Positions 3,236 to 57,046 of a DNA stretch of 60,771 bases are shown piece by piece. A program made the translations under genes and the position numbers. The notes under the pieces were generated by a model. The model did not search any database and was not told the DNA's origin. It saw only the letters and a program-made list of their open reading frames with translations. Position 1 is the first letter of the stretch. The number at the start of each line of letters is the position of its first letter. This stretch comes from an uncultured Candidatus Saccharibacteria bacterium (lineage in GTDB: Bacteria > Patescibacteriota > Minisyncoccia > Phycocordibacterales > UBA9973), in assembly GCA_964484005.1 (NCBI GenBank), contig CAZADR010000004.1, positions 1 through 60,771 of the forward strand, in the 5' to 3' direction.

Positions 3236-3236
3236 A

Positions 3237-10497: not shown

Positions 10498-10500
10498 TTT

Positions 10501-10938: not shown

Positions 10939-10966
10939 AGAGCGATTCGTCGCTCGACGTTTGGCG

Positions 10967-15957: not shown

Positions 15958-16053
15958 AGAATTTGTGATTTAGAAAGCCTTGCGCAGGCCGACGGGCCGA
16001 GGTTTCGCTGGCATAGTAATGCCAGATAGATTGCTTTATAAATTACAAATTCT
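15958..16053. repeat. ~100-nt structured palindromic element, copy 2
   Basis: Same architecture as 14042..14144, with compensatory stem changes (GGCC-gacg-GGCC; CTGGCAT-agta-ATGCCAG). Its 3' arm overlaps the last codons of the minus-strand methyltransferase gene. Confidence 0.8.
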
Positions 16054-24578: not shown

Positions 24579-27026
24579 CTATTTTACCTCCCCAAAATTG
24601 TCACCAAATCCTGAATGAACCAAGAGCGGTATGTCTGTCTTATAGTGTAAATATGACCTTAACAAAACACCCTCCATGGCATTCTTAATTATTTCATCAG
24701 CCTGTTTTAACACACTTTCCTCTATCTCATAGACTAACTCATCGTGTATCTGGAGCACCAAGTGAGCTTTTAATAGCAACCCTTCTTTCTCTAAATCTTC
24801 TTCTGTATATCTTATCGCGAGTTTTATTATATCTGCAGCGGTCCCCTGAATAGATGCATTAGTGGCTGTGCGCTCCGCCATATTTTTCAAAAAAGGAATT
24901 CTAGAATTAATATTAGGAAAATATCTCCTACGACCAAATAATGTTTCGGTAAAATAGTTTTTTGTAGCAAGGATTTTTACCTCATTTAAATAATCTCGTA
25001 CTCCAAAAAATTGATTAAAATAATTATCATAAAATTTTTGAGCTTCCTCACGAGTACCTCCAATGTTTTTACGCAAAGCTGAAACCCCCATCCCATAAAT
25101 AATTCCAAAATTTATGACCTTTGCTTTGCGTCGCATCTCGCTGTCTACTTTTTCTACTGGAACATCAAAAACAAAAGAGGCTACACCTGTATGAATATCT
25201 TTTTTGTCTCGAAAAACTTGAGTCATTTTTTTATCACCGGAAAGCATGGCAGCTACACGAAGCTCAATCTGACTATAATCAAAAGCAGAGAGTTTGTATC
25301 CACTTTGGGCAACAAAACCATTTCTTATTTTTTTTCCAAGCTCTGTTTTTATTGGTAGATTTTGCAAATTTGGATCTTGCGAAGAAAACCTTCCCGTAGT
25401 TGTATTGTTTTGCAAAAACCTTGCGTGTAATCTCCCGTCATCGCCTGCCATCTTGGGGATAACATCTATATAAGTAGATAATAGCTTTTGAAGCTCCCGA
25501 TAAGCCATTATTTCTCTGATTATTTCATTGTCTTCTTCTAGCTCTTCCAAGACTGACACCTTAGTAGAAAAAGAACCACTAGCATTTTTTTTCTTGCTGG
25601 ACTTGAGTCCAAGCTTATTAAAAAGTATCTCCCCCAATTGTTTAGGTGAATTTATATTAAATTCTTCCCCCGCCATTTTGTATATTTTTTTTGTAAGAAT
25701 ATCTAGCTCGGTGTGATATTCTTCAGATAATTTTTGAAAATATTTTTTATCTATTAAAATTCCGTGATCTTCCATTTTTTTAACTATAGAAATGATGGGC
25801 TTTTCTATTTCTTCATATACTTTGTCTAATTTTTTCTCTTTTAATTCTTTTAAGATATATTCGTATGCAACATCAAAAGAATCTGTCTTGGCAAACATTA
25901 AAATATCTTCCAATTGAGGATTTGATATATCGGAGTTAATAAGCCAAAGTGCGATACTCGCCTCTTGGAGTTTTTCCTGAGAAATTTGGGAAAGCAAAAT
26001 TTTGTCGGGTCCTCGGATCTCCGGGTCCCCTACCCCGGCCAGACCAGCTCCAAAACTTTCTTTCCCAACTTTCTCCCCAACATTATTTCCATGTTCAGGA
26101 GGATTTTGACCATTTCCAAAAAAACTTTTTAATCTTGCAAACAAACTCCTAAATTCAAAATTTATAAAAGTTTGCTCAATCTTTTTAAAATCAGCATTTT
26201 CCCAAAAAGTCTTTTCTGGTAAGGTAAAATCTATTGGTGCATCAGTCCGGATAGTGGCCAATGTCTTGGAAAACATTGCTTCTTCTTCATTGTTTTTTAA
26301 AAGCTCAATCATCCTAGGACTTATACCAGCTTTTTTAAAAGCCTCTTCGTCTTTCTTTATTTTTTTATATATCTCCTCTATGGTCCCAAAATTAGTAATC
26401 AGGTTTTCAGCTGTCTTTTCACCAATGCCTTTTATGCCAATAATATTGTCTGATGGGTCTCCTCTCAAGCCCTTATAGTCTGGTAAAAGCTTCGGCTTAA
26501 AATGAAACCTCTCCAGCACTGCATCTTCATCGTATAAAATCGTGTCATTGATTCCTTTCTTTAAAGTATAAACTTGAACTCTTTTATCATCTATCAATTG
26601 CATAGTGTCCATGTCTCCTGAAGCAATTATAATATTTAGGTCTTTGTCTTTTTTATATTTTTCAACGATTGTTCCTAGAATATCATCAGCCTCAAAACCT
26701 GGAGCATCATAAATAGGAATATCAAAACATTCAAAAATCTGTCGAGAACTTTTTAATTGAGAGATTAGTGCTTCATCAGCTTTTGCCCGACCAGCTTTGT
26801 ATGCACCATAAGCTTCGTGGCGAAAAGTTTTTTGAGGTAAATCGTAACAAGCGACGATATAATCTGGGTGAAGCTCGGCTATTATTTTCATCAACATACT
26901 CGAAAGACCGTAGAGAGCCCCAGTAGGCTCTCCTTTTGAAGACAAAAACTCAGGCAGTGCATGATAAGCACGATGTATAATCGCATGAGCATCTAGTAAA
27001 ACCAATGTTTTCTTTCCTTTAGGCAT
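24579..27026 (-). CDS. polA: DNA polymerase I (5'-3' exonuclease + polymerase domains)
   Basis: LLDAHAIIHRAYHA..., ...GIKGIGEKTA..., ...DYSQIELRV..., ...KVINFGIIYGM..., ...LQIHDELV.... Carries a GC-rich insert at 26008..26045. Confidence 0.95.
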   Translation of the reverse strand: MPKGKKTLVLLDAHAIIHRAYHALPEFLSSKGEPTGALYGLSSMLMKIIAELHPDYIVACYDLPQKTFRHEAYGAYKAGRAKADEALISQLKSSRQIFECFDIPIYDAPGFEADDILGTIVEKYKKDKDLNIIIASGDMDTMQLIDDKRVQVYTLKKGINDTILYDEDAVLERFHFKPKLLPDYKGLRGDPSDNIIGIKGIGEKTAENLITNFGTIEEIYKKIKKDEEAFKKAGISPRMIELLKNNEEEAMFSKTLATIRTDAPIDFTLPEKTFWENADFKKIEQTFINFEFRSLFARLKSFFGNGQNPPEHGNNVGEKVGKESFGAGLAGVGDPEIRGPDKILLSQISQEKLQEASIALWLINSDISNPQLEDILMFAKTDSFDVAYEYILKELKEKKLDKVYEEIEKPIISIVKKMEDHGILIDKKYFQKLSEEYHTELDILTKKIYKMAGEEFNINSPKQLGEILFNKLGLKSSKKKNASGSFSTKVSVLEELEEDNEIIREIMAYRELQKLLSTYIDVIPKMAGDDGRLHARFLQNNTTTGRFSSQDPNLQNLPIKTELGKKIRNGFVAQSGYKLSAFDYSQIELRVAAMLSGDKKMTQVFRDKKDIHTGVASFVFDVPVEKVDSEMRRKAKVINFGIIYGMGVSALRKNIGGTREEAQKFYDNYFNQFFGVRDYLNEVKILATKNYFTETLFGRRRYFPNINSRIPFLKNMAERTATNASIQGTAADIIKLAIRYTEEDLEKEGLLLKAHLVLQIHDELVYEIEESVLKQADEIIKNAMEGVLLRSYLHYKTDIPLLVHSGFGDNFGEVK
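26008..26045. repeat. ~37-nt GC-rich hairpin element inside polA
   Basis: GGTCCTCGGATCTCCGGGTCCCCTACCCCGGCCAGACC, translated as GLAGVGDPEIRGP. Relative to the uvrC copy, one stem base pair is swapped in a compensatory way (G-C to C-G). Confidence 0.85.
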
Positions 27027-36009: not shown

Positions 36010-37107
36010 CTATTTATTCATTGGCATTATAAGATAAGTAAAAGATGTGTCAGAAACAGGAGAAACAACTATTGGCCTAGAGGAACCAGATAGTTTTATG
36101 GATACACTGTCTGTGTTTATAGATTGAAAACAGTCTAAAAAATATTTATAATTAAAACTCAACTCGACAACCTCTCCATTCACAACTGCATCTAAATATG
36201 TTTTGTTTTCTCCTATGTCATTGTTGGCAGAAGATAATTCAAATATTTTTTCTTTAGGTGAAATTTTCAAATTTACTTGATTAAATTTATCTGAAAAAAC
36301 ATTTGATAGCTTTAGAGCATTCAAAAGGTCTTGTTTTAACAACACGACATCTGTGGTAAATTGTTTTGGAATAATTTGACGGTAGTCTGGAAATATTCCA
36401 TCTATTATTCGTGAAGTTAAATAAATATTTTCTGCTGAAAATGATATTTGGTTTTTATTAAAACAAACCTTAACAACGCCTTGATAATCTCCAAAAACTT
36501 TTAATATTTCAGTAATATTTTTAAATGGTATTAAAATACCTAATATTTCCTCTAATCCTTTCATTTTTATTTTTTTCTCTGCTAACCGAAAAGAGTCTGT
36601 GGATACAAAAACCAAATTATCGTCATTGGTATACATAAAAACACTCGATATTTCTGGTTTTATATCGGAAACTGAAGAACTATAAAATACTGATTTTATC
36701 CCATCGGTTAGTTTTTTTGAATCTATCTCAAAACTTACCCCTTCAACTGTTGGTATTGTTGGAAAATCTTCATGGGGTTGGCTTTTGAGCTTTATTTGGC
36801 TTTTTTTTGTTTTAACTAAAAGATTACCGTCTTTTTCTTCCAAAAGAACATTTTCATTTTGAGAAACATTAGAAAACACAGCATTTAACACCGCTCCTGA
36901 TACCGCCAAGGTTCCTTCTTTTTCTGTTTTAGCCGGAATATCTATTTCAATACCAAGACTTAGGTTTGTAGATCTAAGTTTTAAAGATTTTAAAGAAGCA
37001 ATAAGTAAAACAGAGTTCAATACAGGTAGGGTTAAATTTTTCCCAGTTATTCTTTCCACTTGGGATATTGCATTTTTGATTTTTTCAATTGAACATTCTG
37101 TTTTCAT
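36010..37107 (-). CDS. dnaN: DNA polymerase III beta sliding clamp
   Basis: 365 aa, immediately downstream of dnaA, with a C-terminal ...YLIMPMN-like motif. Confidence 0.9.
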   Translation of the reverse strand: MKTECSIEKIKNAISQVERITGKNLTLPVLNSVLLIASLKSLKLRSTNLSLGIEIDIPAKTEKEGTLAVSGAVLNAVFSNVSQNENVLLEEKDGNLLVKTKKSQIKLKSQPHEDFPTIPTVEGVSFEIDSKKLTDGIKSVFYSSSVSDIKPEISSVFMYTNDDNLVFVSTDSFRLAEKKIKMKGLEEILGILIPFKNITEILKVFGDYQGVVKVCFNKNQISFSAENIYLTSRIIDGIFPDYRQIIPKQFTTDVVLLKQDLLNALKLSNVFSDKFNQVNLKISPKEKIFELSSANNDIGENKTYLDAVVNGEVVELSFNYKYFLDCFQSINTDSVSIKLSGSSRPIVVSPVSDTSFTYLIMPMNK

Positions 37108-37345
37108 ATATGTGTTTATATTTTATATATATAATTTATTAATAATACTAGTTGTGTGGATAAGTGGATAACTTTTTTAGTCTTTTATAATATAAATATT
37201 TTCTTGTTTTTGTTCCTTTTTAAAGTCTAATAACTTTGTGTTGTTTTTCTTATCTTTTTATTTTTTTAAGAAACATCTTTTTTATTATTTTTTATTAACA
37301 ACTTTTCTTTTATTTATGATTACTTTTTCGGCAGGTTATCAACAG
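37108..37345. other. Candidate oriC segment (dnaA-dnaN intergenic, DnaA boxes + AT-rich tract)
   Basis: TGTGGATAA at 37155..37163 is followed directly by aGTGGATAA at 37163..37171, and TTATCaACA lies at 37336..37344. The remainder is very AT-rich. Confidence 0.55.
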
Positions 37346-38686
37346 CTATTTAAACATAATTCTTATCTGTTCTAATTCTTGGAGTAGTTGAGGGTCGTTT
37401 TTTAAGTCAGTTTTTATTTTTAAACATGAGTGTATGACTGTCGTGTGATCCTTACCACCAAGCTTTTGTCCAATTAAAGGAAAAGAAACATTAAAATCTT
37501 CTCGAAGCAAATACATCACCACCTGTCTAGCTTTAACAATCTCTTTTTTTCTTGTTTTTTCATAAACTGAAGTTTCTTCAAGTTTATAATATTCACTTAC
37601 TATTTTTACAACATCCTTTATGGCCATATTTTTCTTTGGCTTCATGTTGTTTTTCAATAAACCTTTTACTTCAATGAGCGTTAAAGGCTTGTTTTTTAAG
37701 CGATATTGGCAAATTATGAGGTTTAGACTTCCCTCCAACTCCCTTATGTTTCCTTGGACCGCACTAGCCACATAATCTACTATCTCTTCCTCTAAATCTA
37801 TGTCTAATTCGCGTAATTTTACCTTTAGAATAGCGAGACGAGACTCGTATTCAGGTTCAGATATATCTACTATCATACCCGCCGCAAAACGCGATTTTAA
37901 CCTATCTGCTAACTCAGGAATGTAGTTTGGGTGTTTATCGGATGAAAATATTATTTGCTTATTGTTTTCATAAAAAGTATTAAAAGTATGGAAAAGCTCT
38001 TCTTGTATCTTTTCCATTTTTCCAATAAATTGTATGTCGTCTATGATTAACAAATCATATTTTCTATATTTTTCTTTAAATGAATTAGCTTTGTTGTTCT
38101 GGAGAGAGTTTATAAAGTCAGTCGCAAATTTCTCTAAGGTCATATAATGAACCTTTTTATTTGGATATTTGTCTTTTATTGTATTCCCTACTGCTTGTAT
38201 TAAGTGAGTTTTTCCAAGACCAGTACCTCCATAAATGAAAAAAGGATTATATTTTGTACCAGGAGAATCTATTATTGCTTGAGCTGCTGCATAGGCTAGC
38301 TCATTAAAGGCCCCAACAATAAAAGAATTGAAATGATAGCGGGGGTTTAGGTTGTCTTCTGGGTTTATATAAAGATCTTTTAATGGAAGTTCTTTCTCCA
38401 TGGATTCTATTTTTAATGGAACTTCCTGTTTTATAATTTCTGTTTTAGTGATTATATATTCCACAGCTCTCATGTTTTCAAAAGCGTCAGCTATGGTTTT
38501 GGTTATAAGTTTATGATATTTTTTTATAAGCCAATCTCGGACAAACTCGTTTGGAACCCCAATATAAACAATACCCGTATCCTCTTTCACAATAGATGTA
38601 TTTTTAAACCAAGTGCTGAAATTTGCTTTAGATATGTCTGATTCTATCGCCATTAAACAATTTTTCCACAGCTGTTTAGTATTCAT
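37346..38686 (-). CDS. dnaA: Chromosomal replication initiator protein DnaA
   Basis: GGTGLGKTHL, LLIIDDIQF, and a C-terminal DNA-binding domain (...GGKDHTTVIHSC...). Confidence 0.95.
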   Translation of the reverse strand: MNTKQLWKNCLMAIESDISKANFSTWFKNTSIVKEDTGIVYIGVPNEFVRDWLIKKYHKLITKTIADAFENMRAVEYIITKTEIIKQEVPLKIESMEKELPLKDLYINPEDNLNPRYHFNSFIVGAFNELAYAAAQAIIDSPGTKYNPFFIYGGTGLGKTHLIQAVGNTIKDKYPNKKVHYMTLEKFATDFINSLQNNKANSFKEKYRKYDLLIIDDIQFIGKMEKIQEELFHTFNTFYENNKQIIFSSDKHPNYIPELADRLKSRFAAGMIVDISEPEYESRLAILKVKLRELDIDLEEEIVDYVASAVQGNIRELEGSLNLIICQYRLKNKPLTLIEVKGLLKNNMKPKKNMAIKDVVKIVSEYYKLEETSVYEKTRKKEIVKARQVVMYLLREDFNVSFPLIGQKLGGKDHTTVIHSCLKIKTDLKNDPQLLQELEQIRIMFK

Positions 38687-38822
38687 AGGTTCATATTATA
38701 CTATTTGTTAAAAACATAGCATCTTTGAAAACTTATTAACTCTGTTGATAAACTGTGCAAAACTTTTTTAACATTTTTTATTTTGTTTGATTTATTGTCA
38801 ATAATATTATAGACTCTAATAT

Positions 38823-38960
38823 ATGTCACAAACATACCAACCTAAAAAGAGAAAAAGAGCCAGAGCCCATGGTTTTTTAAGTAGATCTAGGATAAAGACT
38901 GGGCAAAAGGTTCTTTTGCGAAGAAGAAGAAAAGGACGCGCAAGTCTCTCTGTTTCTTAA
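38823..38960 (+). CDS. rpmH: 50S ribosomal protein L34
   Basis: Below the ORF-track cutoff. [45 protein letters not shown]. Confidence 0.9.
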
Positions 38961-38987
38961 TCTCTTCTCCACAATTGGTGGCCATAT

Positions 38988-39314
38988 ATGCTTTCTAAAA
39001 AAAATAGGGCCGATAGAAAAATGGTAGAAAAAGTCTTTAAGGAGGGCAAATCTTTGTCCTTAGCAACCTTTTCGTTTAGGTTTATTGTGTCCCCTGACAC
39101 AAAGACCCCTCAAATTTCTGTTATTGTACCTAAAACACTATCTAAAAAAGCAGTAGACAGGAACTCACTTAGAAGAAAGGGATATTTGGCTCTAAAAAAA
39201 TTTATAAATAATTTCCCCAAGGAAATCATTGGGGTTGTTGTTTTTAAGCAATATCAAAACGATATATCTATTATTGAGGATGATATTAAAAAAATTATTA
39301 ATAAAATTAATTAA
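38988..39314 (+). CDS. rnpA: Ribonuclease P protein component
   Basis: 108 aa, basic, located directly after rpmH. ...[13 protein letters not shown]... resembles the RNR motif. Confidence 0.8.
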
Positions 39315-39495
39315 CTTTTATCAAAAACACATCTCTTTTTTTAAAAAACCAAGTTGTGTTTTTTACCCTACCTGCTCTGAATATACCAAGCAAGCCATAG
39401 AAAAATATGGTTCCTTAAAAGGAACTCAGTTAGGATTTTTACGTATTCTTCGTTGTCATCCGTGGCAAAAAGAACACATGGATCCACTCCTTTGA
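39280..39495 (+). CDS. yidD: Membrane protein insertion efficiency factor YidD
   Basis: [10 protein letters not shown]...[19 protein letters not shown]...LRILRCHPW. The start is placed at the internal ATG (the ORF opens at 39229). Confidence 0.8.
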
Positions 39496-39525
39496 TTTTT
39501 TACCTTTTTCATATAGAATGAAATA

Positions 39526-40260
39526 ATGCTTTCAAATATATGGAATTTTGTTCTATATGAGCCATTATTAAACGCCTTGGCTTTTTTAGTGTCTGTCGTA
39601 CCCGGCGGAGATGTGGGTGTGGCTGTTATTCTCCTTACTGTTGTTGTCAAAATAGCATTATTCCCTCTTTCCCAAAAATCTATTGAAAGTCAGGCGGAAA
39701 TGAACATTCTCGCTCCAGAAATCAATAAAATTAAGGCCAGCGGGGCAAGCAAAGAAGAGCAAGCCAGACTTACTTTTGAGCTTTATAAAAAACACAATAC
39801 TAACCCATTTTCTGGGTGTCTTTTGATTTTAATTCAAATACCTATTATTTTTGCCTTATATTATGTTTTTTTGAAAGGAATAAATTTTGATAGTGGTTTT
39901 CTGTATTCTTTTATAAAAACCCCAGACCACGCCAATATGATATTCTTAGGGCTTCTTGATATTACTCAAAAGAGCTTTATTTTGGCAATCTTGGCGGGTA
40001 TATCTCAATACCTACAAGCTCATTTTATGCCAAAGCCTATCACCTCTTCCCCCTCCAATGGTGGTGCCCCGTCTTTTGCAGATAGTTTCTCCAAGAGTAT
40101 GCACACGCAGATGAAATATGTTTTTCCTTTTGTGGTTGCCTTTATTGCTTACAGTATTTCAGGCGCAGTCGCTTTATACTGGATTACCAGCAATCTTTTT
40201 ATGGTGGGTCAGCAGATTTATGTAAAAAGAGAGAAGAACTTCAAAATTGTAATTAAATAG
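39526..40260 (+). CDS. yidC: Membrane protein insertase YidC (short form)
   Basis: 244 aa, multi-TM. ...KHNTNPFSGCLLILIQIPIIFALY... matches the YidC/Oxa1 core. Confidence 0.85.
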   Translation: MLSNIWNFVLYEPLLNALAFLVSVVPGGDVGVAVILLTVVVKIALFPLSQKSIESQAEMNILAPEINKIKASGASKEEQARLTFELYKKHNTNPFSGCLLILIQIPIIFALYYVFLKGINFDSGFLYSFIKTPDHANMIFLGLLDITQKSFILAILAGISQYLQAHFMPKPITSSPSNGGAPSFADSFSKSMHTQMKYVFPFVVAFIAYSISGAVALYWITSNLFMVGQQIYVKREKNFKIVIK

Positions 40261-40262
40261 TT

Positions 40263-40757
40263 ATGAAAAAAGACGAAATACAAAATTTAATAAAAGAATT
40301 AGTAGAAAAAACAACTGTAAAAATAAATGAAATTTCAGTTGTTGAAGAAAATCCTAAAAATATTTGGGTTTCAGTTGAAGTAAACGAACCACATTTCTTT
40401 ATTTCCCATGAAGGAGAAGGGTTGCATGCTTTAAATCACATTGTTCACAGGATTTTAGAATCTAAAAACCCTACCCCGGGGGTAGGGGCAGAGAGGGTGC
40501 CACCAGCTGGTCTCGGTATTATTATTGATGTAAATGGATTTCAAAAGAAACATGTAGATAGTGTCCGAGCTGTAGCGCACATGATGTCTGAACGAGCTCG
40601 ATATTTTAAATCAAACATAGAAGTAGACCCCATGTCTGCTTTTGAGCGCCGAATAGTGCATGAATTTTTATCTGACGCCACAGACTTAAAAACCGAATCT
40701 ATGGGCTATGGCCGAGACCGCCGTGTGGTCATCAAGTATGTAGGTAATAGCTTATAG
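40263..40757 (+). CDS. Jag/KhpB-like RNA-binding protein (KH + R3H)
   Basis: R3H motif: PMSAFERRIVHEFL...GRDRRVVIK. Located after yidC. Confidence 0.8.
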   Translation: MKKDEIQNLIKELVEKTTVKINEISVVEENPKNIWVSVEVNEPHFFISHEGEGLHALNHIVHRILESKNPTPGVGAERVPPAGLGIIIDVNGFQKKHVDSVRAVAHMMSERARYFKSNIEVDPMSAFERRIVHEFLSDATDLKTESMGYGRDRRVVIKYVGNSL

Positions 40758-42358: not shown

Positions 42359-43309
42359 TTAAAAACCACAAGATCTATTAGCTCCCCATTGGCCCCACCC
42401 CCTTGCAGTTTGGAGTGCAGCAGAATATTTTATATTATTTGCTGGATTTGTAATATAACTTATGCAAGATTGATATTTTGCTTGGTTTTTAACAGTACAA
42501 TCATATTTTATACAAATACCATTTTTTGACTCCAAACAAGATCCTTGGGTTCCTGTTCCGTTTTTTTGAAAAATATCACTACACACACCTCCTGGTATCT
42601 CGTTTGCATGAGCAAGGATATTTACTTGAAATAATCCATAAGAAAAAGAATTTCCATCACTGCATTTATCTACTCCACTGGCAAGACTAGGATTACCCCT
42701 ACTTTCTCCGTTACATATAGATGAAGCTTGTGTGCTGTTTGTGAAACCAGCATTTGCTAGGCTTTCAGGGCTACACATTCCACTGGCGAGCGGTTCACAT
42801 TTTCCTTGTCCTGTATAGCTTTTTATTTGTTCTTCTAGTGTTATGTTTACTGTAACATCTTCTAAGCTAGATAAGCTGGTGTCTAATAAATCTGGATTTA
42901 TTGTATAGAGGATGGTATATGCTCCCAGAGCTAACACAAGGCCAAATATAGCCCCTAATATCTTCTCTTTACCGTGTTCTTTGTGAGAAATGAGCTCGTT
43001 GGTCATATATTCTAGGCCACCAATCACTATCATTATTACCGCCAAAACAGCACAAATACCTATAAACAGCTTTATCATTAAATTTAAATATTTTCCTAAG
43101 TCTCCCCCACCATCTTTTGTGGGGTCAAAAGTCACTCCTCCTGGTAGTGGTGCTAGAAAATGGTAACCTGTATCTGCTAAACAGGTGACACCATCAGGGG
43201 CTATTTCTCCTGGGCAAACAGTGTCAGCTTGAACAAAATAAAAAGAGAAAGCAAAAATACCCCCAATTATTACTACTAGTATTAAAATATAAGGTAAAAG
43301 TTTTTTCAT
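42359..43309 (-). CDS. T4SS pilin-like N-terminal domain fused to a lysozyme/lytic-transglycosylase-like, Cys-rich C-terminal domain
   Basis: Signal anchor, then PLPGG...GDLGKYLNLMIKLFIGICAVLAVIMIVIGGLEYM...ILGAIFGLVLALGAYTILY (VirB2/TrbC-like two-TM pilin pattern). The C-terminus has NGESRGN...SYGLFQVN (E-S ... GLxQ). Confidence 0.55.
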   Translation of the reverse strand: MKKLLPYILILVVIIGGIFAFSFYFVQADTVCPGEIAPDGVTCLADTGYHFLAPLPGGVTFDPTKDGGGDLGKYLNLMIKLFIGICAVLAVIMIVIGGLEYMTNELISHKEHGKEKILGAIFGLVLALGAYTILYTINPDLLDTSLSSLEDVTVNITLEEQIKSYTGQGKCEPLASGMCSPESLANAGFTNSTQASSICNGESRGNPSLASGVDKCSDGNSFSYGLFQVNILAHANEIPGGVCSDIFQKNGTGTQGSCLESKNGICIKYDCTVKNQAKYQSCISYITNPANNIKYSAALQTARGWGQWGANRSCGF

Positions 43310-43310
43310 T

Positions 43311-44303
43311 TTAAAAAATTACATCGATTTCTTTAGTTGTGTTTTCATATAATTTGTAAACATTATTAATTTCCAATCTTATTTTTGATGCTCCTGTGGT
43401 GCCCTCTGGTACTTTTACTGGCATCAAGTTTTTACTGAGGCCTATGGTGCTCACCAAGCTATCATTTATAAACCAGCTCCACAATAAAGTAGGGATTCTT
43501 ATGTCCCCTGGTGAAATAAAATAAGGAGCAGCTTCTATTATTTCTTCACCGACTATCTTGTGTCCGTTTGGAAGGGCATGTTCCCAGACAGTTCCTAGGC
43601 TGGCGTCATTTTTATAGAAAAGTATTTTAGGTTGATATACACCCACCTCGATACTCGCAGATGAAGAATAATTTTGATCAATAGTAGAAGTCGTGACTCC
43701 GATGGTATTTGAATCTTCTAAATAATCATTTACATAGATAAAATAATTCTTACCATAACCAGAAGCTCCTTGTTCGTTCATATAATCTTTCTTCCAAGAA
43801 TAAGTCATGTTTTTAGGGTTTACTATACCAGAGCTTGTCCTTATTTCTGGCATGGCCACAATCTTTATCTCACTATCCATAGTGGGCATAGCTTTTCCTT
43901 TATAAAAAGGTGGCACATAAGAATCTGTCGCCTCCCAGAGCATTATCATGACCGAAGGCCTGATTGTAACTCTTTTTTCTATGTTGCCGTCTGGTAAGGC
44001 TATGATGGCGGTGACAGATATTTCTCCGCCAACTCCCGGAGCATTTATGGAGAAAGATTTTTTTCCTATACCAGAAAGAGTACTCTTGTTGTTTACAGAC
44101 CAGGTGATGTCTACGCTATCTAGGTTGCTAGCATAGCTCGACAAAGTAATGGTCACATTTTCGTTTGGTGCAGGGTTTTCCGGGTTTATATCTACCGAGA
44201 TACTAGAAGGAGAAGCCGCATTGGTATTTAGAGAAAAAGCTAAAAAACCACTGAATAGTATAAATAAAAATATAAATAAAAATTTGGAAAACCTTTTTAA
44301 CAT
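43311..44303 (-). CDS. Secreted hypothetical protein of the T4SS-like cluster
   Basis: 330 aa with N-terminal signal anchor FLFIFLFILFSGFLAFSLNTNA. Confidence 0.5.
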   Translation of the reverse strand: MLKRFSKFLFIFLFILFSGFLAFSLNTNAASPSSISVDINPENPAPNENVTITLSSYASNLDSVDITWSVNNKSTLSGIGKKSFSINAPGVGGEISVTAIIALPDGNIEKRVTIRPSVMIMLWEATDSYVPPFYKGKAMPTMDSEIKIVAMPEIRTSSGIVNPKNMTYSWKKDYMNEQGASGYGKNYFIYVNDYLEDSNTIGVTTSTIDQNYSSSASIEVGVYQPKILFYKNDASLGTVWEHALPNGHKIVGEEIIEAAPYFISPGDIRIPTLLWSWFINDSLVSTIGLSKNLMPVKVPEGTTGASKIRLEINNVYKLYENTTKEIDVIF

Positions 44304-44380
44304 AATTTAATTATAACACACCTTATTCAAGGACAGTCCTTGGGGAAACTCTCTTAAGGACTGTCCTTAACTCTTCCAAT

Positions 44381-46225
44381 TTACTTATTCAAACTGGCTG
44401 TTTCTTCTTCTTGTTTTGCTTTTCTACTCAACAATATTTGTGAAGGGTCAGAGGTAATAATTTGGTCTTCGGTATAAGAAGCAATGATTTTAATAGCCAC
44501 ATGCTTTAACCCAGCAAAGAATATCCCCTCTCCGACATTTGATTCTAAGAGTAGGTATTTTTCTTCATCTGTCAGGTTGAAGGTTTTTTGCAAGAGGTCA
44601 ATCGTAGTTGGAGATTGTTTTAACAGAAGCTGGATAGAAGAGTTTGTGATAATAGGTACTCCATAAGGAGACTTTAGGAAGTCTGCCGCGTCTTGGGTGA
44701 TAGTAGAAAGACCTAGGTAATATTTTCGCCCTCTTTTTGCTATGGAATACAAGAAAGATGCAGTGTCTTCGGATTTCATCATCCACCAAGCCTCGTCCAC
44801 CACCAAGAGTCTTCTTTTTAAATTCTTTCGAACTTCATTCCAGATAAAGTGCATGATGATGTACATGGCGATTGGTTTTAATTCATCTTCCATGTCTCGG
44901 ACAGAGAAAACAACAAATTTTTTATTTATATCTACATTTGAAGGTCTGTTTAAGAATGTGGCCCAGGAGCCTCGGGTATATTTTACTAATCTTTGTACAA
45001 CAGAATCACTTCCATCCATTCCAGAAAGAACCATTTCAAAGTCTGAAAGAAGTGGGGGCTCTATACTAGAGAAATCAGAGGCTGGAGTGATGTCTTTCAT
45101 TGCATAGGTTTCTGAGATAGCCCTGTCTACCATAGAATCTTCTTCTGGGGTGAGCCCACCGAGCATGAGACGGAAGAGCCCGACAAGGTTTATTATATTT
45201 GAACGGAGTACATCTTCTGCAGTCTCATCTTCGCGAGGTATCGGTAAGTCAAAAGGATTGATGTGGTGATCTGAAGAAAGAGAAATATTAAAATATCGTC
45301 CACCGACAGCTTCAGACAAGAATTCATATTCTCTTTCTGGGTCTATCACAATGACATCTGTCTCAAACATGAGAGATCTCAAAATTTCTAGCTTGGTAGC
45401 ATAAGATTTTCCTGAACCTGATTTTGCAAAAGTGACTGAGTTGTAGTTTTCTAGTGAAAATCTATCAAAAATAACCAAGCTAGAGTTGTGTCTATTTACA
45501 CCGTAAAGTATCCCCTTATCAGAAGTAAGGTCGAAAGATATAAATGGAAATACACTAGAGAGAGGTTCAGAGTTTAATTTTTGGTGGATGCCTAGGAGGT
45601 CTGTATTTATTGGTATGACACTCTTAAAACCTTCTTCTTGTTGGAAAAGTGCTGGTTTTATGTAAATAAGCTTGGATTCAAGCATTGATTTTATTTCATT
45701 TTCAATTTTGAAAAGCTCAAATTCGTTGTCTGCGTAGATTGTGATATAGATGCCGACATCAAACATTTTTTCTTGGGCTTGTATTAGATTGTCTCGGAGG
45801 CCTTCAAGGTCTTGATAGGCTGTGTCGAGCATTGGGTCTCGGACCATTCCTTTCTTTTCGCGCACATTTATCTGACTCTGGACTTCAGCAACTTTTTTCT
45901 GAAATTGCCTCAATACTAGGGAGGTATCTATCGGATGAACAAAAATTGAAATATCAAAAATTTTATCCAAATTTATAATTGGAGAAAACCAATTGTCTGT
46001 CAGATATCTAGGATAAGAAATAATAAAGAAAGTACGAGCAATCTTTTCTCCTAGGTTTATTGCTTTGGGCTCAATCTTTAGTGCTGAAGGAGCGATGATA
46101 TCTTGCAATTCCATGTTGGCGGATTCATATATCTCTTCAGGCAATATCGCCAAAGTAGAAGCATGGGCTTCCATACCCCCAGTCTCTTTCTTTTCTTGTC
46201 CTAATAATTTTTTAAAAAAGTCCAT
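44381..46225 (-). CDS. virB4: VirB4/TrbE/TraC-family type IV secretion ATPase (lacks the usual N-terminal domain)
   Basis: Walker A FAKSGSGKSYATK, Walker B RRLLVVDEAWWMM, ...LGLSTITQD.... Confidence 0.85.
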   Translation of the reverse strand: MDFFKKLLGQEKKETGGMEAHASTLAILPEEIYESANMELQDIIAPSALKIEPKAINLGEKIARTFFIISYPRYLTDNWFSPIINLDKIFDISIFVHPIDTSLVLRQFQKKVAEVQSQINVREKKGMVRDPMLDTAYQDLEGLRDNLIQAQEKMFDVGIYITIYADNEFELFKIENEIKSMLESKLIYIKPALFQQEEGFKSVIPINTDLLGIHQKLNSEPLSSVFPFISFDLTSDKGILYGVNRHNSSLVIFDRFSLENYNSVTFAKSGSGKSYATKLEILRSLMFETDVIVIDPEREYEFLSEAVGGRYFNISLSSDHHINPFDLPIPREDETAEDVLRSNIINLVGLFRLMLGGLTPEEDSMVDRAISETYAMKDITPASDFSSIEPPLLSDFEMVLSGMDGSDSVVQRLVKYTRGSWATFLNRPSNVDINKKFVVFSVRDMEDELKPIAMYIIMHFIWNEVRKNLKRRLLVVDEAWWMMKSEDTASFLYSIAKRGRKYYLGLSTITQDAADFLKSPYGVPIITNSSIQLLLKQSPTTIDLLQKTFNLTDEEKYLLLESNVGEGIFFAGLKHVAIKIIASYTEDQIITSDPSQILLSRKAKQEEETASLNK

Positions 46226-46231
46226 AAATTT

Positions 46232-46870
46232 TTATTTAACTTTAATCTTTCCTTCTATTTCTCCTGGATTGAAAACTTTATAAAACACCTCTACTACTTC
46301 TTCTGTACCTAGCTGGGTTGAGTTTATTCCACAACGGCCTAGCCCTTGCTCGATGACGGCCACCCTCTCTTCTAGTTGGGATCTCTTTTCCTCAAAATCT
46401 ATTTGTTTGAGGGCTTGCACCTCTTCTTTACTTCTTTTTGAAAAGAATCTATCAAATATTCCTGTATCAGATTTTAAGACTGTGTGAGTATAAGGAACTA
46501 CGATGAAAAAAGTTTTTGTCATTATTGCTACCGATTCAGTAAAATTTCTAATGAAGTCTATATATTCTTTTGTTTGAAGTTTTAAAAGAGGCTCATTTTG
46601 AACCAAGATTCTATTTTCTAAAAGCAAAAGATAGGGACGAATATCCAATCTTCTGGATTGAATAGATATTTGTATTGGAAAGTCTAAAGTATTTAGAAAA
46701 TTTTGGAATTGTAATATTGTGGCTCTTTGTTCATCAGCGGATTTTAGAGAAAGGTTTACGGAATTTGCTAACACAATAGCCCGAAGCTCGTCGTTTTTTA
46801 GAACGATGATTCCATCGCGTACTTCTTTTATAGGTATAAATTCTTGTGTAGCTTTTGCTTTTAAGGCCAT
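46232..46870 (-). CDS. Probable separately encoded VirB4 N-terminal domain
   Basis: 212 aa immediately upstream of virB4. QEFIPIKEVRDGIIVLKNDELRAIVLANSVNLSLKSADEQRATILQFQNFLNTLDFPIQI resembles the N-terminus of Gram-positive-type VirB4 proteins. Confidence 0.5.
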   Translation of the reverse strand: MALKAKATQEFIPIKEVRDGIIVLKNDELRAIVLANSVNLSLKSADEQRATILQFQNFLNTLDFPIQISIQSRRLDIRPYLLLLENRILVQNEPLLKLQTKEYIDFIRNFTESVAIMTKTFFIVVPYTHTVLKSDTGIFDRFFSKRSKEEVQALKQIDFEEKRSQLEERVAVIEQGLGRCGINSTQLGTEEVVEVFYKVFNPGEIEGKIKVK

Positions 46871-46877
46871 ATTTTAA

Positions 46878-47321
46878 TTATTTATTACTATTTTTTTGTT
46901 TGCTTAAATCTAGCACATCCAAACTCCATGCCAAATCTCGAAGCCTGCTTCCGCTCAACTTTACTCCTCCTTCTGCCAGCATTCTACTTTTTTCTTGTTC
47001 TATGCTTGCTGTACGGCCCATCTCCCCCACTTTTCTTTTTTCCAAATGTTTTTTCCAGATGTACAGCTTGCTTTGGGTAAAATATTTAAAGCCTGCTTCA
47101 ATCATATTTACAAAAGGTTTATTGTTTGGCTTGTAGAAAGTGAGCATGAGAGAAAAACCAGCTATTATAAACATCGGTATCACCGCAAAGACCAAACCGA
47201 GCAACCGATAAAGTACAAAGCAGAGCCCTGCTCCCCCAGCCAAATAGACAAATTCCCTAAAAGTGAAAGGGCCAAAAATTTTGTCTTCTATCTCTAAAAA
47301 TTGTGGTACTTTAAATTGCAT
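46878..47321 (-). CDS. PrgI/VirB3-like small membrane protein
   Basis: MQFKVPQFLEIEDKIFGPFTFREFVYLAGGAGLCFVLY... followed by two TM helices. Positioned before virB4. Confidence 0.55.
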   Translation of the reverse strand: MQFKVPQFLEIEDKIFGPFTFREFVYLAGGAGLCFVLYRLLGLVFAVIPMFIIAGFSLMLTFYKPNNKPFVNMIEAGFKYFTQSKLYIWKKHLEKRKVGEMGRTASIEQEKSRMLAEGGVKLSGSRLRDLAWSLDVLDLSKQKNSNK

Positions 47322-54067: not shown

Positions 54068-54919
54068 TTATTGTCCAGCTAGGGAAATCCAGTCTTTGAG
54101 TGTTAATTCCTCGGCTCTTTTGTTTCCTAAATTTTCAATCAAGGTAGAATTCTCATTTTTTTTGTAGTTTGACAAACTTTTTAAGTTTGAAGAGAGTTTT
54201 TTTCTTTTATGAGAGAAGCCAGTTTTAACTATTTCCCAAAAATTATCTTCGTTTATGTTGTTTTCCTTAAAAACTTTTCTAGATATGTTTTTTATCAAAA
54301 TTATTGCCGAATCTACCTTTGGTGCAGGTGAAAAGTACCTAGCACCTACTTTCATTATGGTTTTTGGCTCTCCGTAAGCCTTGACTGAGATGGAGAGGAT
54401 GCTCTCCTTCCCATCTCTGGCTACTATCCTCTGTGCTACTTCGTGCTGTACCAATAGCACCATCAGCTCTGGCTGATTTGTTTCTGTTAAAAACTTTTTC
54501 AAGATTGCCCCGGTGATGTTGTAAGGGATGTTTGCGATCAACTTATAATTCAGAGGTTTTAAGTTTTTAGAATGGTCTGGCTGGGAGAGGGACCCAGAGA
54601 TCCGAGGACCTGATAAAAACTTCAAAACCTCTGAATTTAAATCAAATTCTAAGATATCTTCTCGAAGTAAAATTAGTTTTTTTTCTGTAATTTCTTTTTC
54701 AAATTTTGTTTTCAAAAATTCAAAAAGCTCTCGATCTTTTTCTACTGCCACTACCAAGCCAGCTTTTTCTAAAAGTTTTTCTGTGAGTGCACCTTTACCA
54801 GGGCCAATTTCTAAAACCACATCATCAGATTTTATTTCTCCTGTTTCAATAATTTTTTTTAAGGCTATTTCTGATTTTAAGAAATTTTGTCCCAGAGATT
54901 TTTTGGCTTTGTGTATCAT
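54068..54919 (-). CDS. rsmA: 16S rRNA (adenine1518/1519-N6)-dimethyltransferase
   Basis: KSLGQNFL..., VLEIGPGKGALT, ...ANIPYNIT.... Carries a GC-rich insert at 54574..54610. Confidence 0.9.
   Translation of the reverse strand: MIHKAKKSLGQNFLKSEIALKKIIETGEIKSDDVVLEIGPGKGALTEKLLEKAGLVVAVEKDRELFEFLKTKFEKEITEKKLILLREDILEFDLNSEVLKFLSGPRISGSLSQPDHSKNLKPLNYKLIANIPYNITGAILKKFLTETNQPELMVLLVQHEVAQRIVARDGKESILSISVKAYGEPKTIMKVGARYFSPAPKVDSAIILIKNISRKVFKENNINEDNFWEIVKTGFSHKRKKLSSNLKSLSNYKKNENSTLIENLGNKRAEELTLKDWISLAGQ
54574..54610. repeat. ~37-nt GC-rich hairpin element inside rsmA (opposite orientation relative to the gene compared with the uvrC and polA copies)
   Basis: Plus strand: GGTCTGGCTGGGAGAGGGACCCAGAGATCCGAGGACC. 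Translated in the gene as GPRISGSLSQPD. Confidence 0.85.
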
Positions 54920-56994
54920 AAATATATTGTCTTTATATTATTACTTTCCCCTTCTTTTTCCAACAAGTCTCCAGGAATGTCCGAGATAAATTCTGAGGGG
55001 GTGTTTATGTTTCTAGAGCCGAAAATAGTACGAAAATTTGCAAATGATAAAAATAATTTTTCTTTAGCTCGAGTGACAGCCACATAAAAAAGTCTGCGTT
55101 CTTCTTCTCTGTCTTCATTGGTTTTTCTTTCGTTTTGTCTTTCGTGTGGAAAGAGTCCATCTTCGAGTCCTGTGACAAAAACATATTTGAATTCAAGGCC
55201 CTTTGAGGCATGCACAGTCATGAGTTTTACTGCGTTTATTGTCTCCTTCTTCTCTCCTCTTTCTATCAGTGAATCTTGGTCGCTCGCGAGTGATGCATCT
55301 TCTAAAAGCTTTTCTACACCAGCTCCGTTTTCCAAATTGTCGTATTTCAAGGCCAGGGTGGCGAGCTCTTTTATGTTCTCCAATCTTTCCATTTCTTCTT
55401 CTCCCCCACTCAATAATTCATTCTCTATGCCAGATTTTTTGACCACAAATTTTATTACGGCGCTTGCTTTTTCTGTCTTTATTTTTTCTTTTATTTCCTC
55501 CAATGTTTCATAGAAATTATTAATTTTTATTCTGGTTTTAGCTGGCAAGCTTTCTACTTCTCCTGAAAAAATTTTCACCAAAGTGGCTTTGCCTATCCCC
55601 CGTGCGGGGAAATTGATTATTCTTTTTATATCAGAGAGGCTGTCTCTATTTAATGCAGCACGAAGGTACGCGAGAGTATCTTTGATTTCTTTTCTTTCAA
55701 AAAATTTCACCCCTAAAACTTGGTACGGGATATTGTATCGGAGCATCGCCTCTTCGAGCGCTCTCGATTGGAAATTTGCACGATACAAGACTGCTACTTC
55801 GGACAGGATATTGGCGGAGTCGGAATTACTTTTTCGGATGGTCTGGCCGGGAAAGGGACCCGGAGATCCGAGGACCTCAGAAAAAGTATTTCCGATGGAG
55901 CCCCTATCTAGAAATTCTAAGATTTTTGTGGCGATAAATTCTCCTTCATCAGTTTCATCTATCGCTTCATAGAGCCCAATCTTTTCCCCTATTTCATTGT
56001 CGGTGAAAAGATTTTTGTCTGGCCTATATTTATTTTTCTTAATTATTTCATTGGCTGCTTCTAATATATTTTTTGTGGAACGATAATTTTGTTCCAATAG
56101 AATTATCTTTGCATTGGGGTAATCTTTTTCAAAACTCAAAATATTTTTTAAGTTTGCTCCACGCCAAGAATAAATATTTTGATCTGCATCCCCCACTACA
56201 CAGATATTTTTATTGTTTTCAGAAAGTAATTTAGACATCAAGTATTGCACTTCGTTGGTGTCTTGATACTCGTCTACATGTATATAATCCCATTTTTCTT
56301 GATAAATTTTTCTGATTTCTTCGTTTTCTTTCAATAGCTTGGTTGCTTTTAAAAGTAAATCATCAAAATCGAGCGCATTTTCTTTCATCTTACTTTTTTC
56401 ATACAAATTCCAAACTTGGGCCACAATCTTACCCAGATGGTCACTTGCACCCTCCGCATAGTCCGACAAATGCACAAATTTGCCCTTTTCACGGGAGATA
56501 ATACCCTTTATTTTTTTAGGATCATACATTTTAGGGTCTATGCCGAGGTCTTTTAGGATGTTTTTTATGAGAGTAGTGGCATCTCCTTCGTCTAAAATGG
56601 TGAAATATCTAGTCAATCCAAGCAATCTGGCGTTTTCCTTGATTATATATACTCCCAAAGAGTGAAAAGTGGATACAAAGGGGACTTTGTCTTGTCCTTT
56701 AGCGTTTTTCTCTATTTCTAGGCCAATTCGCTCCTTCATCTCCTTGGCTGCCTTGTTTGTAAAGGTGACAGCCAATATCTTTTCTGGAGATACCCCCTCT
56801 TTTATAAGATTTACTATCCTATGGGTAATAGTCTTGGTTTTACCCGCCCCTGCCCCCGCCACAATAAGAAGAGGACCCTTCATATGAAGAGCCGCCTCTT
56901 TTTGTTCTTTATTTAGACCTGCGAGGTGTTGCACTTCTTTAATATAGCACAGATTTTTATTTATTTTTTCTTTATTTAAGCTATTTTTGGGCAT
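54916..56994 (-). CDS. pcrA: ATP-dependent DNA helicase PcrA/UvrD family
   Basis: GAGAGKTKTITHR, ...VTFTNKAAKEM..., HVDEYQDTN, ...VHASKGLEF.... ATG at 56994 (the ORF opens at a TTG at 57003). ATGA overlap with rsmA. Confidence 0.9.
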   Translation of the reverse strand: MPKNSLNKEKINKNLCYIKEVQHLAGLNKEQKEAALHMKGPLLIVAGAGAGKTKTITHRIVNLIKEGVSPEKILAVTFTNKAAKEMKERIGLEIEKNAKGQDKVPFVSTFHSLGVYIIKENARLLGLTRYFTILDEGDATTLIKNILKDLGIDPKMYDPKKIKGIISREKGKFVHLSDYAEGASDHLGKIVAQVWNLYEKSKMKENALDFDDLLLKATKLLKENEEIRKIYQEKWDYIHVDEYQDTNEVQYLMSKLLSENNKNICVVGDADQNIYSWRGANLKNILSFEKDYPNAKIILLEQNYRSTKNILEAANEIIKKNKYRPDKNLFTDNEIGEKIGLYEAIDETDEGEFIATKILEFLDRGSIGNTFSEVLGSPGPFPGQTIRKSNSDSANILSEVAVLYRANFQSRALEEAMLRYNIPYQVLGVKFFERKEIKDTLAYLRAALNRDSLSDIKRIINFPARGIGKATLVKIFSGEVESLPAKTRIKINNFYETLEEIKEKIKTEKASAVIKFVVKKSGIENELLSGGEEEMERLENIKELATLALKYDNLENGAGVEKLLEDASLASDQDSLIERGEKKETINAVKLMTVHASKGLEFKYVFVTGLEDGLFPHERQNERKTNEDREEERRLFYVAVTRAKEKLFLSFANFRTIFGSRNINTPSEFISDIPGDLLEKEGESNNIKTIYL
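55840..55876. repeat. ~37-nt GC-rich hairpin element inside pcrA
   Basis: Plus strand: GGTCTGGCCGGGAAAGGGACCCGGAGATCCGAGGACC. Translated as VLGSPGPFPGQT, a different frame from the rsmA copy. Confidence 0.85.
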
Positions 56995-57046
56995 TTTTGT
57001 CAAACCTTAGGTCCAAAATAGTTTTCCACAGGAGGCCCCTTCCAAA

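Follow-up and report, generated by a model that had tools for sequence, protein, structure and literature searches.

A GC-tipped hairpin repeat in genes and intergenic regions of Patescibacteria

The Rickettsia palindromic elements (RPE), reportedly described by Ogata et al. in 2000, are said to be palindromes that lie in frame within housekeeping genes, and also in intergenic DNA, of a small AT-rich genome. RPE are ~100 to 150 nt in length and are apparently tolerated as surface peptides; to our knowledge, the means by which they move have not been established. Here we describe an element of related architecture, the family-A hairpin, four copies of which occur in the uvrC, polA, rsmA and pcrA genes of a contig from an uncultured Candidatus Saccharibacteria bacterium (CAZADR010000004.1, GenBank assembly GCA_964484005.1; the whole stretch of 60,771 nucleotides is called the window). 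Like RPE (mentioned in PMC1779305 and PMC10969869), it is a palindromic repeat that is found in frame in conserved open reading frames (ORFs) and also between genes. Unlike RPE, it is only 75 to 100 nt in length, is conserved in its core and tip rather than over its whole length, and has a stem that is specific to each copy. It also differs in its use of five reading frames and of both orientations, in core flips and tip swaps that occur in place, and in the phylum of its hosts. Comparison of its copies supports the conclusion that the conserved unit is a nucleic-acid fold, and not a peptide.

Repetitive extragenic palindromic (REP) sequences and REPINs are GC-rich, imperfect palindromes with bulges that are recognised as single-stranded hairpins; they are long-lived at orthologous positions, more conserved than their surroundings, present in either orientation, and in some cases terminators (PMC3733652, PMC3184786). 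They are extragenic by definition and accompany a RAYT gene (PMC3733652, PMC3184786), and their foot carries the tetranucleotide GTAG or CGTC (PMC3733652). The family-A hairpin shares the GC-rich bulged structure, the persistence at orthologous sites, the conservation above that of its surroundings and the occurrence in either orientation, but it is present at 15 coding sites, and its alignment consensus has no invariant GTAG or CGTC at the foot. No match to Y1_Tnp (RAYT) was detected among the ~57 window ORFs or 20 flanking ORFs scanned. The element likewise lacks the conserved terminal inverted repeats and the fixed-length target-site duplication of MITEs (miniature inverted-repeat transposable elements), which depend on a DDE transposase: the best direct repeat in its flanks has a mean length of 2.65 nt, versus 2.21 nt in shuffled flanks.

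The NTS/dRS3 and Ssn-related motifs (SRM) form strand-specific hairpins with non-palindromic flanks, cluster at particular genes, and are cut by the GIY-YIG single-stranded DNA (ssDNA) nuclease Ssn (PMC11893778). NTS are found in hundreds of intergenic copies and are linked to natural transformation (PMC11893778). Family A is also a strand-specific hairpin repeat that clusters around particular genes, but its core is unrelated to the NTS/SRM consensus CGTCATTCCCGCGMAVGCGGGAATCYRG and its copies are few and also genic. When window and flanking ORFs were scanned for a small single-domain GIY-YIG protein (cd10448), the sole GIY-YIG match was UvrC itself. DNA uptake sequences (DUS) and uptake signal sequences (USS) are motifs of 9 to 12 nt that occur about once per kb in coding regions, in several frames and where proteins are less constrained; pairs in inverted arrangement serve as terminators, and the motifs accumulate by point mutation and uptake bias (PMC2817400, PMC2397512, PMC2346458, bioRxiv 10.1101/2025.10.24.684340). 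The family-A core resembles them as a nucleotide motif that is read in several frames inside coding DNA and is over-represented at genome-maintenance genes (~12 of 28 sites, in a post hoc count that has no whole-genome denominator). However, uptake sequences have no long hairpin, and they are far denser substitution-derived motifs, whereas the window has 4 family-A copies in 60.8 kb (~8 core equivalents by k-mer depth), and these are insertions relative to empty sites.

The byp elements, reportedly described by Lang et al. in 2014, are said to be mobile GC-rich hairpins in mitochondrial genes that the ribosome bypasses. Small flips are reportedly known from chloroplast DNA, as hairpin-associated minute inversions (Kelchner & Wendel, 1996), and from intragenic invertons (Chanin et al., 2024), in which a flip within a gene is said to recode the peptide. 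Like byp elements, GC clusters and other mitochondrial hairpin elements (cf. PMC4524435, PMC7813641), the family-A hairpin is a GC-rich hairpin that invades protein-coding genes of an AT-rich genome. The hosts of byp elements are organelles, however, and a bypassed insert is unconstrained in frame, whereas family-A copies are in frame at 15 of 15 coding sites, and this frame conservation implies read-through. With minute inversions and invertons, family A shares a short segment between inverted repeats that is present in both orientations at one site, but its flips have been observed solely in comparisons of different genomes, and an invertase was not found. Literature searches returned no description of such elements in the Candidate Phyla Radiation (CPR)/Patescibacteria.

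Hairpin structure and reading frames

The whole element is a hairpin of 75 to 100 bases with a conserved GC-rich core of 37 to 38 nt at its tip. A pattern search of the window matched the core at 54574-54610 and 55840-55876 on the plus strand and at 16981-17018 and 26008-26045 on the minus strand, and a covariance model retrieved these four copies only (65 to 87 bits, with the next match at 18 bits). The 37-nt sequence at 54574-54610 is repeated at 55840-55876 with three mismatches, and the 14-mer GAGATCCGAGGACC is invariant, its opposite-strand matches lying at 16981-16994 and 26008-26021. None of 100 shuffles yielded the 37-mer, and the 14-mer would be expected by chance with a mean of 0.09 matches.

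At each window copy the core is enclosed by an inverted repeat of 19 to 24 nt, or up to 32 nt at lower identity, whose sequence is wholly copy-specific. The AT-rich stem is 16 to 30 bp in length (median ~22 bp) and remains complementary though its sequence differs in every copy; the architecture is the same throughout, with a T-run and an A-run adjoining the core. Between this stem and the core lies an internal loop, nGAAU opposite UGAn. Within the core, a helix of GGUCUGG paired with CC-GA-GGACC, with GA as a bulge, carries the standard tip, which is an apical 5-bp hairpin (CNGGG-loop-CCCN'G). Short and long alternative tips also occur, and the tip is exchangeable. Conservation covers the core and ~10 nt of the inner arm (alignment consensus nGAATGGTCTGG...GAGGACCTGAn), whereas the outer stem is specific to each copy and the ends of the hairpin are least conserved.

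On all strands tested, the element folds far better than shuffled sequences do (z of -5 to -8, both strands). In 40 copies, 96% of cells are paired, compared with 81% in shuffled controls, and double changes are present in 9 of 10 outer pairs. Of the N-N' pairs of the tip, 19 are C-G, 19 are U-A and 1 is G-C, and one copy is unpaired at this position. The covariation score of 0.361 (versus 0.096) was reached in 0 of 500 shuffles, and sliding the partner column by one reduces pairing to at most 65%.

All four window cores lie within long minus-strand ORFs that have homology (Pfam or PDB) on either side of the insert. The intact rsmA/ksgA gene (54068-54919, minus strand) encodes a 16S rRNA dimethyladenosine transferase that aligns with KsgA structures on both sides of the insert (E 3e-31). 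Its hairpin occupies 54547-54637, with arms at 54547-54568 and 54616-54637 and the core-sense strand plus (86.6 bits), and folds as RNA with -40 kcal/mol (z -5.1 and -7.3). As rsmA is a minus-strand gene, it is the reverse complement of the hairpin that is translated, as NSEVLKFLSGPRISGSLSQPDHSKNLKPLN, and a peptide predicted for rsmA is ISGSLSQPDHSK. The adjacent pcrA/uvrD-type helicase gene (54916-57003, minus strand) is also intact, with Pfam and PDB homology, and overlaps rsmA by 4 nt. Its hairpin is at 55820-55895 in plus orientation (arms 55820-55838 and 55877-55895; 84.3 bits), and a weaker extension of the arms reaches out to 55807-55908. The minus-strand translation of this copy, IGNTFSEVLGSPGPFPGQTIRKSNSDS, is one base out of phase relative to the copy in rsmA: in the host frames, the core reads SGPRISGSLSQPDH in rsmA and EVLGSPGPFPGQT in pcrA (core phase 0 and 2, respectively), and pcrA peptides are predicted to span SNSDSANILSEVAVLYR.

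The other two hosts have the core in the opposite orientation, and the strand translated in both gives GLAGVGDPEIRGP. The short-form uvrC gene (434 aa; 16512-17816, minus strand) is intact, with GIY-YIG, UVR and UvrC_RNaseH_dom matches. Its family-A hairpin, with the 38-nt variant of the core, extends over 16954-17046 on the minus strand (arms 16954-16977 and 17023-17046; 81.2 bits), in the stretch that separates the UVR motif from the RNase H-like endonuclease domain; the core-sense strand is here the gene strand, translated as LIKQGSAFVNGLAGVGDPEIRGPEQKENPALF. In the intact polA gene (24579-27026, minus strand; Pfam), the hairpin spans 25979-26075, also with the core-sense strand minus (arms 25979-26002 and 26052-26075; 65.3 bits), and is translated as EKVGKESFGAGLAGVGDPEIRGPDKILLSQISQ in the linker that connects the 5'-3' exonuclease domain with the polymerase domain. 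The inserts of UvrC and PolA thus fall between Pfam domains, and that of PcrA aligns between residues 348 and 353 of PDB 1pjr. An AlphaFold model of the window PcrA (64 homologs) places the PcrA insert as coil, with a pLDDT of ~30, between a helix and a strand, and the insert is accordingly predicted to be a disordered loop. Elsewhere in pcrA (55037-55134, minus strand) there is a sub-threshold Rfam match of 48 bits (gathering score 65) to RF03531, the Clostridioides difficile "sRNA included into helicase gene". This match coincides with conserved coding sequence of pcrA, and conservation of that sequence, rather than an RNA gene, is its most likely cause.

An earlier note on this DNA had claimed that the element is read in three frames in these four genes, with the rsmA and pcrA copies ~1.2 kb apart in adjoining, overlapping genes. 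The exact translations were reproduced, and the gap between the two copies is 1,230 nt. The note's estimate that at least three of the six frames are open proved conservative: when other genomes are counted, five are used in intact long ORFs (SGPRISGSLSQPDH, QVLGSPGPYPGQT, RSSDLRVPLPARP, GLAGVGDPEIRGP and RSGRGRDPEIRGP). With L followed by a number denoting the fetched related loci, and P followed by a number the PcrA homologs, the RSSDLRVPLPARP frame occurs in cysteine-desulfurase-like genes (L038 and L049), and the RSGRGRDPEIRGP frame in CCA-enzyme-like genes (L031 and L044). Among 55 distinct cores, each of the five used frames is stop-free in 47 to 55, and the sixth in only 13.

Neither a frameshift nor a stop was found at any of the 15 coding sites, which are in uvrA, uvrC (two), pcrA (two), polA, rsmA, cca, trmD, iscS (two), a glycerate-kinase-like gene, mnmA, the L22 C-terminal tail and recJ. 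At one orthologous site in pcrA, genomes with conserved DNA nevertheless use different frames, through +1/-1 indels in the arms: the L026 copy has gained one base in one arm and lost one in the other, which changes the frame of the core and leaves the gene open. Alternative tips differ in length by multiples of three (37 versus 25 nt). In-frame and stop-free copies, compensating indels and tips that change in multiples of three together indicate that the insert belongs to the translated message. Corrected gene models that put the elements in intergenic DNA or in pseudogenes would have undone this picture, but the gene models are sound and the ORFs are full length. The note's proposal that nucleotide sequence or structure is the conserved unit is borne out by the five frames, the intergenic copies, the frame change in L026, the covariation and the identity of the cores. 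The inverted repeats specific to every copy, the extragenic copies and the two further frames elsewhere had escaped it.

Distribution and evolution at fixed sites

In GTDB species genomes, an exact 20-nt core pattern has 20 true copies, all of them in Patescibacteria, in metagenome-assembled genomes (MAGs) labelled Nomurabacteria, Paceibacterota, Saccharibacteria or "Patescibacteria group"; three further matches in GC-rich actinobacteria were dismissed as chance. The same pattern matched 33 metagenome contigs, and no copy was found in viral contigs. In 61 fetched loci, where 8 to 15 kb of DNA around each related copy was read, the covariance model gave 77 matches, which reduce to the 55 distinct standard copies. 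About half of the copies are intergenic, several of these resembling bidirectional terminators, and the others are deep within long ORFs. Rfam at its gathering threshold reported only tRNAs and no match to the element; at E<=1 it added one chance long-hairpin match (MIR1435, E 0.5) and no intron or ribozyme. The k-mer depth in the source metagenome is ~986 for the core and ~117 for its flanks, which corresponds to ~8 core equivalents. Family A is therefore a low-copy family and not a swarm. The earlier note had called the element a conserved, spreading unit. As to spread, the copy number is low (~8 core equivalents) and the majority of sites are old ones that different genomes have in common; the pattern resembles exchange or replacement among hairpins already in place more than it resembles rampant transposition.

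Evolution of the element was followed most closely in pcrA, for which 120 PcrA homologs of 75 to 88% identity were compared and DNA was fetched for eleven loci. The site occupied in the window, between ..ILDxG and LSE(V/I)AVLYRAN, is an insertion hot spot that is empty in eight homologs of 647 to 653 aa (P0003, P0004, P0019, P0041, P0086, P0102, P0103 and P0115). Homologs in which it is filled have the window element, in either orientation or frame, or one of at least five other insert types, such as RGVSQADEPRGSA..DSDPAK and GTLGRSDGDGQRKFSAENFRG; for pcrA site 2, the count is at least six insert types, besides empty sites. Fourfold-degenerate sites of pcrA differ by 45 to 70% among seven genomes, and so are essentially saturated, yet in the site-2 cores of the same seven genomes only 2 to 3 of 37 nt differ (92 to 95% identity), and changes in the arms compensate one another. 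Conservation of the core and compensation in the arms despite saturated fourfold sites indicate that the fold is constrained at the nucleotide level. Some close PcrA homologs, P0049 and P0100, are 1,032 to 1,073 aa in length and have an intein-splicing domain (PF14890), so that this helicase is a host of inteins, too, in related genomes.

The core can be reversed in place. In pcrA, L062 and L060 differ from L063 and L064 by a flip in which the arms (GAAATGCTTTT / AAAAGCATTTC) are unchanged and the core and linkers are inverted. Both orientations are also found at orthologous sites in cca, polA, uvrC site 2, recA-5' and recJ-5'; the polA site, for example, is filled in the same orientation in L002 and in flipped orientation in L032, and the site that holds family A in the window's uvrC is empty in L001 and has a flipped copy in L053. 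Tips change at fixed sites as well: at recA-5' the tip is standard in L029 and L046, short in L005 (GGTCTGG-GGATTTTTT-CCGAGGACC) and long in L012. The short tip recurs at pcrA site 2 in L025, and an explanation of that copy as a decayed one with a 12-nt deletion was dropped in favour of membership in a recurrent short-tip subfamily; the alignment behind the subfamilies had been fitted to the covariance model. In L012 (3636-5317) and L005 (5346-6992), recA is flanked on both sides by family-A hairpins, and a third such hairpin lies in the next gap, between a small membrane protein gene and ftsK; the tips differ between L012 and L005.

Occupancy also varies in other genes. Families can take one another's place at a single codon position. 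At the rsmA site, the window and L064 have family A, L024 and L025 have a different family, and L026, L060, L061 and L063 have no insert; metagenome contigs reveal a related strain with a different rsmA insert, of 129 nt. uvrC site 1 is occupied by family D in the window and by family A in L001, and is vacant in L053. The uvrA sites are empty in a sister genome. Those rsmA genes that have an empty site (L026, L060, L061 and L063) carry a short direct repeat coding for xYKL...xYKI immediately before the IANIPY motif, and ACCTACAAGCTAA is present twice in L061 rsmA. This repeat may be a footprint or an old duplication.

In the post hoc count mentioned above, ~12 of ~28 distinct family-A sites are in or beside genome-maintenance genes, namely uvrA, uvrC (two), pcrA (two), polA (internal and 3' end), recA (5' and 3'), recJ (5' and internal) and udg (3' end). 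Counting all families, the window has 9 GC-tipped hairpins, 8 of which are within or adjacent to uvrA, uvrB, uvrC (two), polA, pcrA, ruvA and fpg, genes that make up ~22% of its length. Intergenic copies cluster at repair genes too (recA 5' and 3', polA 3', udg 3', recJ 5', ruvA 5' and fpg 3'), so tolerance at the protein level alone is insufficient to explain the association. In-frame GC-tipped hairpins with unrelated cores, assigned to families C, D and E, are located at 21732-21835 in uvrB, 17364-17455 in uvrC and 19948-20030 in uvrA. Two family-B hairpins (14042-14144 and 15958-16053) have AT-rich, copy-specific arms of 21 to 24 nt and a GC-rich core of ~55 nt (CTTGCGCAGGC...GCTAGATAGATT). 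One family-B copy is upstream of ruvA, and the other separates the 3' end of fpg from that of a SpoU-type methylase gene.

Origin and maintenance of the hairpins

We consider it probable that the family-A hairpin is a structured repeat of the REP/RPE/NTS kind, resident in Patescibacteria (Nomurabacteria/Paceibacteria-like), that is kept by selection on its fold and by exchange, and is tolerated in proteins as a disordered loop. The entity that is conserved and copied would be a single-stranded fold, and no peptide. Within genes, only in-frame, stop-free copies are seen to survive, and these would be read through as disordered loops rich in Gly, Pro and Ser; such loops lie at domain boundaries, in whichever frame and orientation the copy has, and both of these change in place, by core flips and by +1/-1 indels in the arms. 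Selection on the fold would most likely involve a structure-specific protein that acts on the core-sense single strand, by analogy with RAYT on REP and Ssn on NTS. Copying between hairpins of one genome, perhaps by gene conversion or by "homing" into resident hairpins, would account for the exchange of tips, for sites at which one family has given way to another, and for the resemblance between copies of one genome. Occasional new insertions would bring the core and inner arms, and the outer stem may be made by an inverted copy of the target flank.

The state of the N-N' pair bears on exchange between copies. It is shared in 36 of 63 pairs of copies at the same site in different genomes (57%), in 27 of 39 pairs at different sites in the same genome or sample (69%; the "same genome" labels are partly labels of metagenome samples) and in 45% of all other, background pairs. 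That copies in the same genome are at least as alike as orthologous copies is a signature of concerted evolution. The uvrA and uvrC copies of L001 have in common the core and 10 to 13 nt of the inner arm; their outer arms are unrelated yet perfectly paired. As for the origin of the outer stem, the window's family-E insert in uvrA can be compared with an empty site in L001 at ~90% protein identity: the outer left arm is host-coded (ILEKK versus TFEKG), and its reverse complement lies within the 72-nt insert. As one clean case, this suggests, with limited support, that the arm arose by fold-back copying of the target flank. A general rule that arms consist of host sequence and its inverted copy was rejected: family E in uvrA agrees with it and family D in uvrC is ambiguous, but most family-A sites do not conform.

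Several observations weigh against this account of fold selection and exchange. In addition to the mixed labels in the N-N' comparison, identical 17-nt arms, mismatches included, are found at pcrA site 2 of L025 and pcrA site 1 of L033, which means that a hairpin can be copied as a whole, its arms moving along with the core. At most family-A sites (pcrA sites 1 and 2, uvrA in L001 and rsmA), both arms are additional DNA when compared with empty sites; together with the shared arms of L025 and L033, this indicates that a step of inverted flank copying is not general. In assembled contigs, which are broken at the repeat, recent polymorphism in presence or orientation was not seen, nor was any allele that is empty or flipped. 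Enzymes that might bind, cut or copy the hairpin did not turn up: the window lacks genes for Y1/RAYT, for a transposase and for a small GIY-YIG protein. That the insert is translated is deduced from frame conservation only. Finally, strong conservation and a low copy number (~8) would also fit a host function.

If the hairpins were instead purely selfish, that is, functionless mobile palindromes of the MITE or RPE type, without continuing exchange, that are tolerated in permissive loops, their frequency in repair genes might be ascribed to these genes being long, weakly expressed and less constrained in reduced genomes. The location of inserts in domain linkers, where they are predicted to be disordered, agrees with this idea, as do the sites that are empty in close relatives, the several unrelated families that share one architecture and the same permissive sites, and the failure to find a partner protein. 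We nevertheless regard it as unlikely, because the core is conserved where neutral sites are saturated, the arms evolve in a compensatory manner, copy number is low, conserved terminal inverted repeats are missing, target-site duplication does not exceed chance, and protein-level tolerance cannot account for intergenic copies at repair genes. An equally doubtful proposal is that the GC-tipped hairpins are a conserved single-strand signal, present even within coding DNA, that marks genome-maintenance genes (uvrABC, pcrA, polA, recA, recJ, ruvA, fpg and udg), either as the cis element of an SOS-like regulon or as a transformation tag like DUS or NTS, whose copies are kept alike by structure-directed gene conversion and whose stem perhaps derives from inverted flank copying. 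A host-level signal for such genes, in the form of a cis-regulatory hairpin (of the RNase III type, or protein-bound and SOS-like) or of a DUS/USS-like or NTS-Ssn-like site for uptake or nuclease recognition, seems to us more doubtful still. The proportion of family-A sites and of window hairpins at genome-maintenance genes would suit it, as would low copy number, orthologous sites and strong conservation, and a function independent of orientation would be appropriate for a signal in DNA. DUS and USS are reported to be biased to genome-maintenance genes and to occur in several frames (PMC2817400, PMC2397512). Ssn cleaves NTS hairpins as ssDNA, and these hairpins have an effect on transformation (PMC11893778); the window encodes a PilB-like ATPase. 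However, many sites are not in repair genes (rsmA, cca, trmD, iscS, mnmA, prfA, the L22 tail and tpiA), a given site is without the element or holds another family in close relatives, and the enrichment is post hoc and has no whole-genome denominator. Moreover, uptake sequences originate from point mutations and occur at far higher density, unlike this inserted element; flips of the core relative to the gene argue against a cis role in mRNA, and no regulator or nuclease was identified.

Two further explanations are effectively excluded. The insert might be removed like an intron, or skipped by programmed translational bypassing as in byp of yeast mitochondria or T4 gene 60, and frames would then be irrelevant. 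A GC-rich hairpin in conserved genes of an AT-rich genome, with a long stem that brings the ends together, is what one would look for in this case, but constraints on frame would not exist if the segment were untranslated. Instead, all 15 coding sites are in frame and stop-free, indels occur in frame-restoring pairs (L026), tips vary by multiples of three, only the five usually stop-free frames are used, and Rfam gave no intron or ribozyme even at the relaxed threshold. Least probable is an artefact of gene models or assembly, with hosts that are pseudogenes or elements that are truly intergenic. Short-read unitigs do break at the repeat, and no other support for an artefact was found; the host ORFs have their full length, domains and PDB alignments are recognized to either side of the insert, the same insertions are present in independent assemblies from many studies, and contig depth is uniform in four runs.

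Much of bacterial diversity belongs to the Patescibacteria, whose genomes are minimal and contain hardly any non-coding DNA. Structured repeats that lie inside essential genes and are read in nearly any frame explain part of the puzzling "extra loops" in Patescibacteria proteins. Annotators and structure predictors should be aware that such segments can be nucleic-acid features, and the element would offer a natural setting where selection for a fold of DNA or RNA prevails over the peptide. Should the link to genome maintenance be true, it would offer a route to the regulation or exchange of repair genes in uncultured, naturally competent bacteria, and would also indicate a hairpin-specific protein.

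Other features of the window

A complete diversity-generating retroelement (DGR) occupies 9096-11656 and includes a reverse transcriptase gene (9096-10097, minus strand), a bAvd-like gene (10096-10497, plus strand), a template repeat (10497-10622) and a variable repeat (10996-11121) at the 3' end of an ORF at 10967-11656 (minus strand). Of the 26 mismatches between the two repeats, 23 are at plus-strand T, which is A on the template coding strand. A link between this reverse transcriptase and the family-A hairpin was considered and is unsupported, as variation in the core is not adenine-specific.

The neighbourhood of a replication origin is recognizable at 36010-40757, with dnaN, dnaA, rnpA, yidC and jag (R3H) and with clusters of DnaA-box-like sequences at 37155-37344 and 38662-38973. 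With oriC beside dnaA, the core-sense strand of all four window copies would be on the lagging-strand template, but a rule based on replication strand was abandoned: L064 has both orientations within 2.2 kb. Mismatches on the core-sense strand are more often G.T than A.C, whatever the direction of the gene (32 versus 9, or 18 versus 7 beyond 10 nt from the core). This wobble asymmetry is a weak hint, several of the mismatches being inherited between orthologs.

An inverted repeat of 231 nt with 95% identity (468-698 and 3237-3467) surrounds ~2.5 kb of small ORFs, and each of its arms contains a small hairpin (541-590 and 3345-3394). The region from 468 to 3467 may represent a segment that can invert or that has been duplicated. 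A type IV secretion-like block at 42359-47321 encodes a type IV secretion system (T4SS) pilin, a P-loop ATPase of the TraG/VirD4 type and a PrgI-family protein. Its strand is opposite to the direction of replication from the nearby origin, and the block may be an integrated mobile region.

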